IMG/VR virus record: IMGVR_UViG_3300025655_000026
Location: 13,517 to 77,516 of that record
Source: a virus
DNA length: 64,000 bases
Strand: one strand, 5' to 3'
A program made the translations under genes and the position numbers. The notes under the pieces were generated by a model. That model was not told the origin of the DNA. It saw only the letters and a program-made list of their open reading frames with translations, and did no database searches. The first letter of the stretch is position 1. The number at the start of each line of letters is the position of its first letter. Positions 3,830 to 56,745 of this stretch are shown here, piece by piece.

Positions 3830-4234
3830 ATGGCGGCATTGAATCACGATACTAGACTAGTTATGACTATTCTTTTTGTTGGAACACTTAGCGGAGCGAA
3901 TGTATTCTTTTATGCTCAATACGGAACAGGATTTCCTTATGGGCCGATGACGCATTCTGTTCTCTTTGGGCTAGGAACAATTGGTTCTATTATGGTCATG
4001 AAAGCCGTCTTTGATTTGGCTCTCAATGATAAAATTGAACTATGGCTTCTTGATAGAAAGATTTCAGCATATTGGGCTAGAAAGGCTAGAGATGCTGAAC
4101 AGCGAACTAAATTAGTAGAAAGCGCAAAGCAATACTCTAACAACTTCGGTTCTTCTCCATTCCAACAACCTCAAATGCTAAGTCAAGAAGATTCCAATTC
4201 AGTTGGAAATGAATTTTTGATTGGGCTACAATGA
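3830..4234 (+). CDS. membrane protein (2 predicted TM helices, Q-rich tail)
   Basis: Hydrophobic runs 'LVMTILFVGTLSGANVFFYA' and 'VLFGLGTIGSIMVMKAVFDLAL'. Confidence 0.7.
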   Translation: MAALNHDTRLVMTILFVGTLSGANVFFYAQYGTGFPYGPMTHSVLFGLGTIGSIMVMKAVFDLALNDKIELWLLDRKISAYWARKARDAEQRTKLVESAKQYSNNFGSSPFQQPQMLSQEDSNSVGNEFLIGLQ

Positions 4235-4243
4235 GGGTTATGA

Positions 4244-4459
4244 ATGCTAGGCGACATACTAGGTATGACCGATACTGACTTCATGTATAACCAAAGCAGA
4301 GCGCATTCTGCTGACATTTTCTTTTTGAAAATGAGAGCATGGTTTTGGGGCAGTTGTGCTACATTGTCGGCTTTATTGATTGGTAACATCATGGGAGTAT
4401 TTGATTTAAATATCATGGGTTGGTTGATTGAGTCTGTAAAGTCCTTTTGGGGGCATTAG
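4244..4459 (+). CDS. small membrane protein
   Basis: TM segment 'AWFWGSCATLSALLIGNIMGVF' plus amphipathic C-terminus. Confidence 0.65.
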   Translation: MLGDILGMTDTDFMYNQSRAHSADIFFLKMRAWFWGSCATLSALLIGNIMGVFDLNIMGWLIESVKSFWGH

Positions 4460-4460
4460 G

Positions 4461-5123
4461 GTGTCGCTACTAACAGGCTTTGCCGTTGTAATAACAGAAG
4501 CGGTCTTCTCTGTTTACAAAAAACTACACGCAATTAACTTCGGAGTCTATGGGGCGACAATGGTTGGCAAAACTACTTTGGCTCATCAACTTACTACGAG
4601 AGGAGAAGTTCAACAAATAAACGAAAGAACGGTTGGGCTACATAGAGCATCAAGAAAGTCAATAAAAATTGATGGCCAAACAAATACCATTAAGAGTGCT
4701 GATTTAGGAGGAGAAGCAATCTATTGGAAAGAATGGGTTAAAGATATGCAATTAAGAAAGCCAAAATATATTATTTTCATGATAGACCATAGGCACTTAG
4801 ATAATTCTTCAAATCTTGACCATCAAGTAGCATGGAAGTTTCTTGTAGATACTGTTTGCTCATCAATGTGGCCTACTGGAAAGAAAAAGAAAGAAGAAGA
4901 CTATCCTTTAGCCATAGGTATTTGGGCTAATAAATATGATATTTGGGGAAAGAAATATGATAACGATGAGCCTATTGAAAAACATGAAATATTTGAACCG
5001 TTTAAGTATGGAATGAGGAAGTTGAACGAGAAGGGAATACCCTGTTTCAAATATATTGTTTCAGCAAAATCTGACCCCGAAATGGTGTATAGAGGAATTA
5101 TTACAATGATAAAGGATTACTGA
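4461..5123 (+). CDS. Ras-superfamily small GTPase, Arf/Sar1-like
   Basis: G1 GATMVGKTT, G2 Thr (RTVG), G3 DLGGE, G4 NKYD, G5 SAK; hydrophobic N-terminal helix. Confidence 0.85.
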   Translation: MSLLTGFAVVITEAVFSVYKKLHAINFGVYGATMVGKTTLAHQLTTRGEVQQINERTVGLHRASRKSIKIDGQTNTIKSADLGGEAIYWKEWVKDMQLRKPKYIIFMIDHRHLDNSSNLDHQVAWKFLVDTVCSSMWPTGKKKKEEDYPLAIGIWANKYDIWGKKYDNDEPIEKHEIFEPFKYGMRKLNEKGIPCFKYIVSAKSDPEMVYRGIITMIKDY

Positions 5124-5128
5124 TTATT

Positions 5129-5656
5129 ATGTGGAAAGATATTCTTAAGGCTCTTGAAAGAATTGCTTTGAGTGATAAGGATAAAATAAAAATAGAAAAA
5201 GTTCCACAAGAAGTTTCATTCAAACCCAATGGACTATGGTATTCATTTAGTTTAGGAAGTGGCTGGATGAGAGGAAATATGTTAGATTATGGCTGGTTAG
5301 AATCATATCAATATATGTTATACTTAGATACTTCCGAATTAAACATTTTACAAATTAAAAACTTAGAAGATGCTAATGCTTTTTATAGCAGATGGAATCG
5401 TGGAAAACGCAGAAACCAATGGGATAGTGTTGCTTTTTACTATGATGGAGTAGAATTATTAAACTATAATAATTGGGTTGAAAAATATGGTAGCGATAAT
5501 CCTGTTATGGAAGAATTTGGTGGATGGGATATGGATTCGGGATGTATTTGGAATACTCAAAATTTAAAAGTTAAAAAAGTCAAACCTATTGAAGAACGCC
5601 ACTACAAAAGACAACATAAAGAACAATTGAGTTTATATGATGATATAGAGGAGTGA
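5129..5656 (+). CDS. hypothetical protein starting MWKDILK; possible ADP-ribosyltransferase-like fold
   Basis: 'KPNGLWYS...YDGV...GWDMDSGCIWN'; the fold guess is weak. Confidence 0.45.
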   Translation: MWKDILKALERIALSDKDKIKIEKVPQEVSFKPNGLWYSFSLGSGWMRGNMLDYGWLESYQYMLYLDTSELNILQIKNLEDANAFYSRWNRGKRRNQWDSVAFYYDGVELLNYNNWVEKYGSDNPVMEEFGGWDMDSGCIWNTQNLKVKKVKPIEERHYKRQHKEQLSLYDDIEE

Positions 5657-5660
5657 TTAA

Positions 5661-6371
5661 ATGTATCAACAACCAAACATTATAGGAATGCAACAACAAC
5701 CAATGGGTTTTCAAAATCCACAAGGGGCAAATGTAATGAATGCTTTTTTACCAAAATTACCTAGAGCGAGAAGTGCAGGTATTATTGAAGAGTATATTTA
5801 CGATGAGCAAAAGCCAAAGAAAAAACTTAAGGAAATTAAAAAAGTTCTTCTTCCCGAAAAGAAAAAGTTTCTTTTCTTTAAATATGGTAAAAAGTTTAAT
5901 TTAAAAGACAGATGTATTGTTTGCGGAACTCAACATTTTTGGGAGGCTGGAGATACATTAAGACCGCCTATTCCATTAACAGAAGTTACAAAAGGTAGAC
6001 CGATGAAAGGAACATATTGTCCTAAACACGCTAGCACATTTATGCAAATGGAAATGCTTGAACAACAAATACTTGCAGAAGAAAATGGGTTAGAATTTAC
6101 TGCGTTTAAACCTAAAATGCCAAAGGTTCTAAAAAGTGGCCCAATCAATAACCTTAACAAAGCAGATGTTATGGCTCTAACTGCGACAGGATGGATAATC
6201 AAGCCACCGAGCATTTCTACAACGGAGTCGGCCACACAAGAAGCGCATAGAATCGTTAATGAAATTAATATTTTAACAGAACAATTAAACTACTTGATGA
6301 TACACAAAGGAGTTGAGGCAAATGGGAGTAAGCACGAATACATTGAATTCAGCAATGACGGCACAGAATGA
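5661..6371 (+). CDS. Q/P-rich protein with a putative Zn finger (CIVC...CPKH)
   Basis: N-terminus 'MYQQPNIIGMQQQPMGFQNPQG'; CxxC and CxxH pairs. Confidence 0.65.
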   Translation: MYQQPNIIGMQQQPMGFQNPQGANVMNAFLPKLPRARSAGIIEEYIYDEQKPKKKLKEIKKVLLPEKKKFLFFKYGKKFNLKDRCIVCGTQHFWEAGDTLRPPIPLTEVTKGRPMKGTYCPKHASTFMQMEMLEQQILAEENGLEFTAFKPKMPKVLKSGPINNLNKADVMALTATGWIIKPPSISTTESATQEAHRIVNEINILTEQLNYLMIHKGVEANGSKHEYIEFSNDGTE

Positions 6372-6963
6372 TGCGACATTTAAGACGGTGAATAACCTCT
6401 TGTCGCTTCAAGATAATCATGTTGAAGAATTTCTTCAATATCATGGTGAATCGTTTTTGGGCGCATTAGAAAAAATGATGGAAGATGTTACTGAAAGAGT
6501 AGTTTCACAAATGTTAGCAAAACTAGCATTTATTCAAGACGGTGGAAACATAAAGGTTAATGCTGATTCTTTAAGAGAATATGAAAGAATTACTCAAGAG
6601 AATATTGATTTGGATATTCAAAAGATTCTAAGTGCGGCATTAAATGCAGAAATTATTAATCAACGAAAGATGGCTAAATCTCAATACCTTGAATCACAAG
6701 GCTTTGGTAATCCAGCAGGAATGCAGGGAGTTCAAGTTGCTCAAGGTGCATATGGTCAAAGCCAACAAATGTATGCTCAAGGATTTAATGCTACTCAAAA
6801 CGGAAGTGGCTATCCAGTTCCACCAGCAGGACAAGATGGATATGGAAGACCATATTGGATTGACCCACAAACAGGACAAATGAGTTATGAGCCTCCTAAG
6901 AGTGGTTTGGGATTAATGAATGTTGCACAAAAAGGGGCGGCTTGGGCTAAGTGGTTAATGTGA
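6322..6963 (+). CDS. helical protein with a Q/G/Y-rich linker and WW-like C-terminal motif
   Basis: ATG at 6322; 'GRPYWIDPQTGQMSYEPP' resembles the second half of the WW consensus. Confidence 0.6.
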   Translation: MGVSTNTLNSAMTAQNDATFKTVNNLLSLQDNHVEEFLQYHGESFLGALEKMMEDVTERVVSQMLAKLAFIQDGGNIKVNADSLREYERITQENIDLDIQKILSAALNAEIINQRKMAKSQYLESQGFGNPAGMQGVQVAQGAYGQSQQMYAQGFNATQNGSGYPVPPAGQDGYGRPYWIDPQTGQMSYEPPKSGLGLMNVAQKGAAWAKWLM

Positions 6964-6973
6964 GGAGATTTGA

Positions 6974-8929
6974 ATGGCAGTTCAAATCTTTTGGAATAAT
7001 CGTAAAATAGATATGAGCGATGCAAAGGCTCTTTTAAAAGCCGAAATGTTGGGCTATATTATGGGAACAGAAGAATCTAGAACATTCATACCAAATCTTA
7101 ATGAAGCCGAAAGAAAGTTTGATGATAGTGATTATGAAAATTATCCCGAAGAAGATATGGAAAAAATGTATATAGAATTTGAAAAAATGCTAAACGAAAT
7201 TCTTGAAATGTCACTAGATGATGTAATCAGTCAATTACCACAAAAAAAATATGGTAATTTGGCAGAAAGAGTTCAAGAACGAAAAGAACAAATTGAAAAT
7301 AAAAAACTTAAAGATTTATTAGAAGGCAACACTATTAATATGATTAGTGGTGCTGGCGCATATGAATTGGGTAGAAAACTAGAAGGACTACCAATGATAG
7401 ATTTCTTTGAAGAAATTAAAGGACAGACTGTTGAATTAGATTTTGTTTTTAAACAAAGAATAAAAGATGATAAGTCTTCTTTTATAATAACAACAACAAA
7501 CCCTAAAAATGAAGAAATACACAATATTACAATTGGCTTTTCTGACCATTCTACCGTTAGAGATGTTAAAGAAAAAGCCTTAGAAAAATATGGTATTTAC
7601 AATGCAGGTTTTACAGAAGCGAGAAAAAAAGACCCGTATGTTGTATCTAAAGGAAAGGAAACAATAAAATTTAATCTTGACTTGGCTGAAATTTTAAAAG
7701 ATGGTAAACTTCTACCTAAAGGAACATTAGTAGAATTAACTCCTGAATTAGACGAAAATGGCGACCACGCATTTATAGAAATTGATAAAGATGGTAAAAA
7801 AATAAAAAAACTATTGTATAAAGAAATTGGCAAAAGAACTCTTAAAACTAAAGAGTATGAAGAAATATTAGAACGAATCAAAACACAAAAAATAGATGAA
7901 GATATTATTTCAATAGATGATAAGCCATATCGTTTAATATTCAACGAACAAAGCCGTTCAACTAACATTACTGATTGGATTGAAGAAGATGTTAATAAAT
8001 TCATAACAGATAACATGGAAAAATTTCAATCAGCCTTAAAACCTTATTTAGATGACCCGTTAATTGTGGCAACTGGAAAAGTTAATTTAGATATTAAGAC
8101 TAGTATTACTAAAGTTAGCGGAGGAAAAGAAGTAATAGAAGATATAGATTATGAAACTTACACACTAATGGAGGAAGAAGATTTACTTCCCATTGTAGAA
8201 GAAGACATTGGGTATTTAAAAGAAGACATTACTATTTATGAAGAAAATCTTAAATTGCTCAATAAAACACAAAAGAATATTGTAAATAAAAATAAACCTA
8301 TGAGAGATAGAGTAATGGAATATAAATCAAATATAAATGAGTTAAAGGAACAAAGAGAGAATCTAAGAGAAAGGATTGCTTCTCAGCAAAAAACATCTAA
8401 TTCAGCAAAAAAAATAGGATTTTCGGATGAAGAAACATTAAGAAGATATGACAAACTTATTGAAGAATTTTCCGAAGTAAAAGAACTTACTAAAATACTT
8501 AATTACATAGTAAGAGAAAGAGAAGAAATAAAAAATAAATTAGAAAAAACTAAATCGCTATTGTCTTCTCTTGAGAAATACCTCAAAGATAGAAATATTA
8601 GTGCTTTACAATTAATGTATAGGGAAGAAAAAGATAAAAAGAAACAGCCCTACGAAAAATATACTACTCAAGAAAAATATATTTCAAGAAATCCCTTTCA
8701 AGAACTTTCAAGTTTTTTGACTTTTATTGCAGAAGTAAAAACAAAAGGTTTGCCAATTTATTACGAAGTTATTGTTGATAGTATAGGAAAAATTGACATA
8801 AATCCATCTAAGTATTCTAGAACAGGCCAAAAAGGAAGAATGAAAAGGTCATATGATAGCGAAATTGCCGATGGACTTAGAAACATGGTAAACAAAATTA
8901 ATCGTTTAAAGAATGAAATTGGGGGATGA
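6974..8929 (+). CDS. large K/E/I-rich hypothetical protein with coiled coil
   Basis: 651-aa ORF; heptad-like region around aa 415-545. Confidence 0.7.
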   Translation: MAVQIFWNNRKIDMSDAKALLKAEMLGYIMGTEESRTFIPNLNEAERKFDDSDYENYPEEDMEKMYIEFEKMLNEILEMSLDDVISQLPQKKYGNLAERVQERKEQIENKKLKDLLEGNTINMISGAGAYELGRKLEGLPMIDFFEEIKGQTVELDFVFKQRIKDDKSSFIITTTNPKNEEIHNITIGFSDHSTVRDVKEKALEKYGIYNAGFTEARKKDPYVVSKGKETIKFNLDLAEILKDGKLLPKGTLVELTPELDENGDHAFIEIDKDGKKIKKLLYKEIGKRTLKTKEYEEILERIKTQKIDEDIISIDDKPYRLIFNEQSRSTNITDWIEEDVNKFITDNMEKFQSALKPYLDDPLIVATGKVNLDIKTSITKVSGGKEVIEDIDYETYTLMEEEDLLPIVEEDIGYLKEDITIYEENLKLLNKTQKNIVNKNKPMRDRVMEYKSNINELKEQRENLRERIASQQKTSNSAKKIGFSDEETLRRYDKLIEEFSEVKELTKILNYIVREREEIKNKLEKTKSLLSSLEKYLKDRNISALQLMYREEKDKKKQPYEKYTTQEKYISRNPFQELSSFLTFIAEVKTKGLPIYYEVIVDSIGKIDINPSKYSRTGQKGRMKRSYDSEIADGLRNMVNKINRLKNEIGG

Positions 8930-13158: not shown

Positions 13159-13524
13159 ATGGAAAAAAAAGTTGTAACTGATAAGAGTGTGCTATTTGCA
13201 CTAAATGAGCCTAAGTGTCACTTTATTAAAGTGGCCGAAGACATAGACGAATACCTTAAGGTTTGGGTCAAAGAACCTACATGGTTAGAAGTTGATAAAG
13301 CCATGAATAGCATGATGAAGATTGATGCTAAGAGTCAAAACTTTGACCTTGACCTAAATGCAATGTATCGTTTTATGGTTGAAAACTTTGTTGTAAAGAC
13401 TGAACCAATGCTTTCAACCCTTGATATTCTCCGTTTGAGTCCTTATGTTGGAAATCAACTAAAGGAAATTTTACCTAATCCATTTGATGCTTTTAGCGAG
13501 GATGAGGAAAAAAACGAAAATTGA
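13159..13524 (+). CDS. tail assembly chaperone (gpG-like)
   Basis: Between tube and tape measure; ends across a slippery A AAA AAC at 13509-13515. Confidence 0.7.
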   Translation: MEKKVVTDKSVLFALNEPKCHFIKVAEDIDEYLKVWVKEPTWLEVDKAMNSMMKIDAKSQNFDLDLNAMYRFMVENFVVKTEPMLSTLDILRLSPYVGNQLKEILPNPFDAFSEDEEKNEN

Positions 13525-56670: not shown

Positions 56671-56745
56671 TGGTAGGCATGACAGGAATTGAACCCGTAT
56701 CTTCGGCTTAGAAGGCCAAAATGCTATCCATTACACCACATGCCC
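56671..56745 (-). tRNA. tRNA-Arg (anticodon UCU), CCA encoded
   Basis: GGGCATG acceptor / D-arm TGGTGTAATGGATAGCA / anticodon arm TTGGC CTTCTAA GCCGA / GGTTCAATTCC / CATGCCTACCA. Confidence 0.93.

Follow-up and report, generated by a model that had tools for sequence, protein, structure and literature searches.

A five-gene cassette built around a divergent, Arf-like small GTPase is encoded in a 64,000-nucleotide stretch of viral DNA, corresponding to positions 13,517 to 77,516 of the IMG/VR virus record IMGVR_UViG_3300025655_000026 (this whole stretch is hereafter called the window). The cassette comprises two small membrane proteins with transmembrane (TM) segments, termed TM1 and TM2, the GTPase itself, a Cys/His protein and a Q/G-rich protein, and that it is a real, conserved and membrane-associated unit is held with high confidence. 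The block is undescribed in the literature: the public labels of the GTPase are automatic only ('GTPase SAR1 family protein' at JGI and 'hypothetical protein' at NCBI), and no mention of it was found in the searchable text of published magrovirus papers. The window is part of a 77.5-kb record with tailed-virus head and tail genes, and the GTPase has its closest named match in 'hypothetical protein gp088' of Poseidoniales virus YSH_150918; therefore, the genome is that of a magrovirus, a tailed virus of Poseidoniales (Marine Group II) archaea. In the surface ocean, few viruses are more abundant than magroviruses. As to function, the best guess, drawn by analogy, is that the cassette would be a GTP-switched machine that acts at the host membrane in the late phase of infection, either in egress or in membrane remodelling.

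The GTPase and its family

The GTPase gene (4461 to 5123, 220 aa) lies, like all the other cassette genes and the features within them, on the plus strand of the window, and was characterized by its open reading frame (ORF), motifs, family profile and a model from AlphaFold2 (AF2). It bears G1 GATMVGKT (4551-4574), the G2 Thr57 within ERTVG (4623-4637), G3 DLGGE (4701-4715) followed by Trp92, the strand IIFMID (4770-4787), G4 NKYD (4929-4940) and G5 SAK (5061-5069), in addition to a hydrophobic or amphipathic N-terminal helix (aa 1-22, nt 4461-4526) and a basic insert WPTGKKKKEEDYP (4869-4907). An earlier note on this DNA had proposed a GTPase with intact G1-G5 motifs and Arf-type features. 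The ORFs it listed were found where it placed them, the motifs it quoted (GATMVGKT, DLGGE, IIFMID, ANKYD, LRPPIPL, KPPS, GRPYWIDPQTGQMSYEPP and the C-terminal GLGLMNVAQKGAAWAKWLM) were all located, and motifs, profile, AF2 model and structural Z scores agree with its view of the GTPase.

The motif survey covered 164 homologues from four lineages, 80 of them from group 2. Group 1 is the window lineage, in which the GTPase was found at 80 IMG/VR loci; group 2 comprises 240 IMG/VR loci (GTPase ~31% identical, major capsid protein (MCP) 46-47% identical); group 3 is one 4.7-kb contig, the sole match of its GTPase alignment in the viral and metagenome collections; and group 4 consists of the loci L172-L175, with a His variant of the GTPase. 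One GTPase copy is present per genome. The G1 pattern GxxxxGK[ST], the switch-I Thr, the G4 NKxD and SAK or ATK are conserved across the homologues, and the G3 pattern DxGG was matched in 155 of the 164, the nine unmatched sequences all belonging to the 80 of group 2. Wherever G3 was matched, Trp stands at position D+11 counted from its Asp, a spacing that was compared with those of Arf1, Sar1 and Galpha. The insert before beta5, between alpha3 and beta5, measures 23-29 residues with 5-10 Lys/Arg in the family and 18 residues with 5 Lys/Arg in the single group-3 protein. In an alignment of 31 family members (A1), the invariant residues are G31, G36, K37, T39, D81, G84, W92, D109, N157 and K158.

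Judged by its motifs and predicted fold, the protein is a true small GTPase, a call far beyond chance, and its assignment as a divergent Arf-like protein is supported by motifs, profile and predicted structure. It resembles the Arf family in the Ras-like G domain, the N-terminal amphipathic or hydrophobic helix before beta1, the G3 DxGG instead of DxAG, the Trp at +11 and the hydrophobic-FxxD strand. When PDB sequences were searched with the single sequence, only weak KRas matches were obtained, while the A1 profile retrieved Arl3 (E 3.5e-9), mini-Galpha, the Asgard GerdArfR1 (8oun, E 5.1e-9) and Arl8, ranked ahead of Rab33 and KRas. The AF2 model from the single sequence was unusable (predicted local distance difference test (pLDDT) score 43.5), and the alignment-based model was used instead (pLDDT 88.8, predicted template-modelling (pTM) score 0.84), with the N-terminal helix placed at aa 2-22 at lower confidence than the rest. 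In VIA-align this model resembles GTP-form Arfs: the top 29 rows are all GTP-form Arf or Arl structures (Z 18.0-19.1, root-mean-square deviation 2.2-2.5 A over ~160 residues).

Several results weigh against so close a tie to Arf. The window GTPase gave no Pfam Arf match (PF00025, cut-off 22.3 bits) at E<=0.1, and its best Pfam matches, Roc (22.4 bits) and MMR_HSR1 (20.2 bits), are sub-threshold, as are further ones to Ras and SRPRB; weak SRPRB matches were also seen in six of the 31 family members, and the NCBIfam scan of the cassette proteins returned only a sub-threshold small_GTP match. Foldseek against PDB confirmed the small-GTPase fold with no separation of Rab, Ras and Arf. The next rows of VIA-align (Z 17.3-18.0) are mimivirus Rab, a Loki RagA-like protein, SRbeta, GerdArfR1, Sar1 and Galpha; since Rab, SRbeta, Sar1 and Galpha thus lie within ~1-2 Z of the Arf rows, the Arf/Arl lead on the modelled structure is consistent but small, and the subfamily assignment is soft. 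The position of the catalytic Gln is variable in the family as well, with Glu in groups 1 and 3, Gln, Glu or Asp in group 2 and His in group 4. Compared with Arf proteins, the viral GTPase is only ~20% identical and scores below the Pfam Arf model, has Glu (elsewhere Gln, Asp or His) in place of the catalytic Gln, and carries both the 23-29-residue basic alpha3-beta5 insert and a longer switch I-interswitch region. It is also encoded by a virus of Thermoplasmatota-type archaea, in a cassette lacking ArfGAP or Sec7 partners.

The family is large and yet stands apart: the GTPase has 350 close relatives (70-90% identity), but only 64 cluster representatives were found at E<=1e-3 among 1.8 billion. 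The nearest kin outside magroviruses are prokaryotic Arf-like proteins of ~232 aa (P0181 and P0185-P0262, many labelled Chloroflexota/Anaerolineae, with the orphans P0161, P0167, P0176 and P0180; phmmer E 1e-8 to 3e-4), which share the N-terminal extension, DxGG..W, a GIIFxVD strand and NKxD(I/L)W. They differ in passing the Pfam Arf cut-off, which the viral proteins do not; for instance, the four orphans score 27-57 bits against 22.3. A profile of these four led to ~232-aa proteins, many of them labelled Chloroflexota 'ADP-ribosylation factor-like' and pre-annotated with PF00025. In a quick maximum-likelihood tree, the viral GTPases of groups 1 and 2 form one clade (SH-like approximate likelihood ratio test (SH-aLRT) 94), sister to P0161/P0208/P0262 (SH-aLRT 93), on the bacterial Arf-like side and apart from the eukaryotic Arf-related and Rab rows. 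The tree holds no Sar1, SRbeta, ArfR, ArvA or MglA references and therefore does not settle the subfamily. The description of the machine as eukaryote-like in the earlier note is not supported, the nearest kin found being other viral proteins and Arf-like proteins of bacteria (labelled Chloroflexota).

Arf proteins are defined by their N-terminal amphipathic helix (10.1101/2024.02.28.582541). In the viral family, hydropathy computation revealed ~20 hydrophobic or amphipathic N-terminal residues in all lineages (hydrophobic moment 0.27-0.53). TM-like hydropathy was confined to group 1 (Kyte-Doolittle value 1.67, against 0.8-1.3 in groups 2 and 4), and for this reason the segment fits an Arf/Sar-type inserting helix better, by its sequence, than a conserved SRbeta-type anchor, which was rejected. 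SRbeta itself, likewise related to Arf, is kept at the membrane through a hydrophobic N-terminal segment (2fh5_B, Z 18.0), and differs in that the viral segment is TM-like in group 1 only and in that the virus has no SRalpha-like partner.

One group-2 outlier, the 264-aa P0141, has a Cys-rich insertion (…YCYKCKEVGGGCGCED…) after G4 that resembles a small metal-binding knuckle fused into the G domain; in the viral-collection search no viral loci were found for P0141 or for P0133.

The cassette, its partner proteins and its position

Gene order in group 1 is kept as o3527, TM1, TM2, GTPase, Cys/His protein and Q/G-rich protein. Mean identities are 66% for TM1, 69% for TM2, 78% for the GTPase, 59% for the Cys/His protein and 66% for the Q/G-rich protein, with 68% for the MCP, so the GTPase is the best-conserved protein of the region. 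In a search anchored on the MCP, the GTPase was located 1.6-2.4 kb 3' of it in all 38 loci with at least 4.5 kb of downstream sequence. Group 2 has the identical five genes in identical order (99.9% for the GTPases of groups 1 and 2 in profile-profile comparison), and in group 4 the five genes recur 3' of a chaperonin-like gene, with the Cys/His and Q-rich proteins tied to group 1 by hidden Markov models (HMMs). The synteny check proposed in the earlier note was thus run: the flanking genes are syntenic, and the five-gene order stands in three divergent magrovirus lineages. The group-3 contig reads 74-aa membrane protein, GTPase, 251-aa Q/G/M-rich protein, protease-scaffold and MCP; no Cys/His gene was found on its 4.7 kb, and its membrane and Q-rich proteins gave no significant hhalign match to the group-1 and group-2 profiles.

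As a separate observation, an ORF of 553 aa that immediately precedes the group-4 cassette (L175:3820-5481, with stretches such as TLGPKGMDK) reads, by eye, like an archaeal group II chaperonin (thermosome).

TM1 (3830 to 4234, 134 aa) was defined from its ORF and hydropathy and has two hydrophobic helices (aa 10-28 and 43-61) followed by a basic helix, RKISAYWARKARDAEQRTK, which the positive-inside rule would place in the cytoplasm; its architecture looks holin-like. It was found in 78 of the 80 group-1 loci, and groups 2 and 4 have a counterpart by position and architecture. TM2 (4244 to 4459, 71 aa), likewise defined, has one hydrophobic segment (aa 44-62) and was found in 79 of the 80 loci. 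Its stop codon ends one base before the GTPase start (...TAG G GTG). A small membrane protein also directly precedes the GTPase in groups 2 and 4, and in group 3 the genes of the two overlap at the start of the GTPase. By HMM, TM1 and TM2 of group 4 match those of group 2 (TM1, E 6e-18). Neither TM1 nor TM2 has a significant match to a holin or any other family in Pfam or PHROGs, and it is the shape alone, one or two TM segments with a charged tail, that is holin-like; known holin families are highly diverse.

Group-2 loci encode one more small protein directly 3' of the Q/G-rich gene (L132:11404-11646), 80 aa long and with strong TM segments, two or three in number. It is without counterpart in the window and could be a sixth cassette member in group 2.

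The Cys/His protein (5661 to 6371, 236 aa), defined by its ORF and conservation and putatively Zn-binding, consists of a Q-rich N-terminus, a basic stretch, CIVCG (5913-5927) and a conserved GRPMKGTYCPKH (5994-6029). It was found in 73 of the 80 group-1 loci, and comparisons link it to group 2 (hhalign 96.4%, E 1.2e-9) and to group 4 (HMM E 2e-6). Across lineages the core reads C..G ... V..GR...GTYCP.H, 3' of the basic stretch, and the Arg next to its Cys knuckle is almost invariant. No match was found in Pfam (E<=0.1), PHROGs, NCBIfam or the ESM Atlas. An ArfGAP zinc finger (PF01412, CxxC-x16-CxxC with a catalytic Arg) was rejected on the Pfam result, and the halves of the core lie 25-60 residues apart, unlike that pattern. 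The protein is a candidate regulator or GTPase-activating protein (GAP) of the GTPase.

The Q/G-rich protein (6313 to 6963) begins with a helical domain, which a linker rich in Q, G and Y (6700-6843) joins to a 'WW-like' hairpin specific to this lineage (6844-6897); an amphipathic tail (6904-6960) forms the C-terminus. Its true start is probably ATG 6322, after GGAG, rather than TTG 6313. It was found in 71 of the 80 group-1 loci, and its central domain connects group 1 with group 4 (HMM E 1.9e-8) and group 2 (hhalign 77.6%, E 1.9e-5). In groups 1-3, Q, G, M, N and P together make up 0.57-0.76 of the low-complexity parts. The earlier note set a WW-like motif beside PP motifs of the neighbouring protein, and such a WW/Pro-rich pairing is unsupported. 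The WW match in Pfam (E 0.047) is sub-threshold, scoring 14.2 bits where the cut-off is 26.9, and covers profile positions 12-31 only; of the two signature Trp of a WW domain, about 20-22 residues apart, direct reading finds the first missing and the second replaced by Tyr. The hairpin is not present in the proteins of groups 2, 3 and 4, and LRPPIPL occurs in group 1 only, missing from groups 2 and 4. A true WW domain (PF00397) was accordingly rejected, being sub-threshold, limited to the second half of the domain and confined to group 1.

In the window, the cassette sits between head genes, identified by Pfam/PHROG scan as the prohead protease-scaffold (353-1516) and the HK97/SU10-type MCP (1526-2827), and tail genes, namely a phrog_290 minor tail protein, a tail assembly chaperone and a tape measure. 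Cultured relatives of the MCP are found in the haloviruses HVTV-1 and HCTV-1/5 (~25% identity). The records G000 and G002 (complete, 108.6 kb) are colinear from terminase to tail, including MCP and neck, yet the cassette follows the MCP in G000, whereas in G002 it lies ~9 kb upstream of the terminase, ~22 kb away from the MCP. It is therefore autonomous and moves as one unit, and its neighbourhood differs in each of the three divergent magrovirus lineages. The earlier note had placed it inside the capsid operon, which is correct for the window lineage only and fails in G002.

These positions are also where an alternative to egress has to be weighed, namely that the cassette forms a membrane-tethered assembly platform for procapsid, portal or head-tail joining with the GTPase as assembly checkpoint, comparable to phage T4, whose prohead formation begins at the membrane. 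The group-1 cassette does lie between the MCP/decoration genes and the neck/tail genes, the group-3 one is directly upstream of the protease-scaffold and MCP genes, neighbours of the group-2 cassette carry a capsid-cargo-like tag (see below), and the Q/G-rich protein weakly matches phrog_14074 'virion structural protein' (E 0.0011). HVTV-1, however, has its head module in common with magroviruses and gave no match at E<=1 to the GTPase profile, the identical profile being positive in G000-G002; this absence, together with the relocation of the G002 cassette outside the colinear morphogenetic block, argues against a core assembly role. In addition, the group-4 cassette follows a chaperonin-like gene, and HK97-type head assembly has no need of a GTPase. 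The platform is accordingly regarded as improbable.

Among 185,579 species genomes, a single close GTPase match was obtained (L163, NZMJ01000024.1, 12.2 kb, 77% identical) on a contig assigned to a metagenome-assembled genome labelled Maricaulis sp., a bacterium; it is almost certainly a misbinned magrovirus contig. No tblastn match to the GTPase was found in the phage genome collection.

A proposed role at the host membrane

The mechanism proposed for egress or remodelling runs as follows. The cassette would be expressed together with the late genes, and the GTPase would bind GTP on the cytoplasmic membrane of the host; TM2, co-translated with it, might be its recruiter there, as Sec12 is for Sar1. 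Its N-terminal helix would insert into the membrane, possibly aided in lipid binding by the conserved basic alpha3-beta5 loop, and the GTPase would then recruit the Cys/His protein, as candidate regulator or GAP, and the Q/G-rich protein with its amphipathic tail. Together with the holin-like two-TM protein, the membrane would be remodelled or breached, most likely timing or driving virion egress.

This proposal leans on two published observations. In Haloferax, the Arf-like GTPase ArvA and its operon partners drive vesicle formation, and its Zn-ribbon partner modulates vesiculation and has been proposed as a GAP (PMC10927574); the egress of tailed archaeal viruses is unknown, and its main players have been called 'completely uncharacterized' (PMC10791045). 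On these grounds egress or remodelling is the most economical reading. A role in membrane remodelling or egress, judged from architecture and analogy, is put at rather less than an even chance. The fuller explanation, in which an Arf-like switch and its partners remodel or breach the membrane, most likely for egress, is likewise tentative, somewhat short of even. That a major group of tailed archaeal viruses would have in this cassette its long-sought machinery for egress or membrane breaching, with an Arf-type GTP switch that inserts an amphipathic helix and recruits dedicated partners to remodel or rupture the membrane, is on present evidence somewhat unlikely.

Counting against the egress reading, no holin, lysin, OapB/OapC, ArfGAP or defence family was matched by the cassette proteins in the library scans. 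The cassette adjoins head genes in two of the four lineages, a placement that fits an assembly role equally well. TM1 and TM2 gave no significant hhalign similarity between groups 1 and 2, and homology of the group-1 pair to groups 2 and 4 is not demonstrable. A defence system was rejected separately, PADLOC giving no match for ten cassette proteins.

The ArvA precedent serves an alternative as well, that of a non-lytic takeover of the host membrane, in which vesiculation is induced or blocked, a replication or assembly compartment is formed, or superinfection is excluded. Here a euryarchaeal Arf-like GTPase with a modulating Zn-ribbon partner already vesiculates membranes, and the host phylum is not among the main ArvA carriers listed (PMC10927574); the autonomy and mobility of the cassette within genomes would suit such a function too. 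The failure to find OapB or OapC homologues in G000-G002 and the lack of a PADLOC match speak against it, as does the close spacing of cassette and late structural genes in group 1, which disfavours an early role. Takeover is considered distinctly improbable.

The viral cassette can be set beside ArvA-ArvB-ArvC (OapA/B/C; Euryarchaeota and DPANN; PMC10927574), which acts in membrane vesiculation, by description. Both feature an Arf-like GTPase with an amphipathic N-terminal helix next to a gene for a Zn-binding protein (putatively so in the virus), and ArvA, like the viral GTPase, has MMR_HSR1-type Pfam matches with Arf as the remote best match. The viral cassette differs in its two membrane proteins and its Q/G-rich protein. 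The model of OapB (ArvB, PF09846), whose control search was positive in Haloferax volcanii, and that of the Zn-ribbon OapC (ArvC, PF09845) found no match at E<=1 in G000-G002, and the identification as an ArvABC operon was rejected because these models found nothing in the three magrovirus records. The best guess, again by analogy, is that the viral cassette would work in the manner of ArvA vesiculation without being a member of the ArvABC system.

Other comparisons are more distant. Giant viruses encode their own Ras-superfamily switches, for instance the mimivirus Rab (PDB 5XC5, Z 18.0), a Rab of a eukaryotic virus acquired from the host lineage, whereas the magrovirus GTPase is Arf-like and belongs to a dedicated cassette of a tailed archaeal virus. 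Phage holin/antiholin cassettes, made up of small late-expressed membrane proteins, are alike in being compact and movable and in the build of those proteins, which pair a charged tail on the cytoplasmic side with one or two TM segments; the viral block differs in having neither a holin family match nor a recognised endolysin partner. The earlier note likewise recognised no endolysin in the window, a negative with no exhaustive search behind it. To our knowledge, no phage lysis cassette includes a GTPase.

A conserved and autonomous Arf-like GTPase cassette is thus a concrete candidate for the egress of tailed archaeal viruses. ArfRs are reported to be almost exclusive to Asgard archaea (10.1101/2024.02.28.582541), and the cassette adds viruses of archaea outside the Asgard group to the known carriers of Arf-like switches that have an N-terminal membrane helix, which bears on the pre-eukaryotic origin of GTPase-driven membrane remodelling. 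If true, the egress reading would describe a prokaryotic-virus counterpart of coat nucleation by Arf/Sar1, evolved outside Asgard archaea and eukaryotes.

Neighbouring genes and further observations

The five cassette genes listed in the earlier note stand, and a 175-aa ORF between the GTPase and Cys/His genes had been overlooked (5129 to 5656, plus strand; phrog_8582, E 8.7e-8). It starts with MWKDILK and is present in only five of the 80 group-1 loci, and is therefore a variable, inserted accessory gene outside the conserved cassette. The tag that opens it, W-x-x-[IVL]-L-[KR], occurs seven times in the ORFs of the genome, at positions upstream of the window as well as in it, against ~1.1 times in shuffled proteins. 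Most copies are N-terminal in small late proteins, and the tag may serve capsid targeting or mark a protease site. It was not found in any of the five cassette proteins.

The tag bears on one more alternative to egress, in which the cassette proteins would be carried in the virion for entry or ejection, forming a membrane channel as the DNA is delivered, and the GTPase would act once injection is over. In tailed phages, ejection proteins often act on membranes and have their genes among the structural ones, and amphipathic tails and TM segments are features of the cassette. Since the five proteins lack the WxxILK tag of the putative capsid cargo, which the 5129-5656 protein does have, packaging is weakly disfavoured; the cassette is also missing from HVTV-1, and a small GTPase packaged together with TM proteins is not known to us from any virus. 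A virion-borne function is judged very improbable.

In the group-2 locus L132 (4024-8032 and 12680-13801), several very basic (K/R-rich) proteins are encoded upstream of the cassette. Two ORFs of the locus match the regular expression W..[IVLM][LM][KRQ] (WWNLLK and WSTLMK), and others show, by eye, D-x-A-W-x-L-L-K-like stretches (MDIAWRLLK, IDSAWSLLQ and EEAWGILK); judging from these sequences, the tag system looks like that of the window genome.

Directly 3' of the cassette in the window, a Lys/Glu-rich coiled-coil protein of 651 aa (6974-8929) has a weak DUF7491 coiled-coil match only. It is poorly kept, with tblastn matches in six of the 80 loci at ~25% identity, while both its flanks are conserved. 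Farther away, in the viral replication arm, a tRNA-Arg (anticodon TCT) is encoded at 56671-56745 on the minus strand. The sign of the GC skew flips at ~25 kb and again at ~60 kb of the window, matching the switches of the genes from the plus strand (structural) to the minus strand and back to the plus strand.

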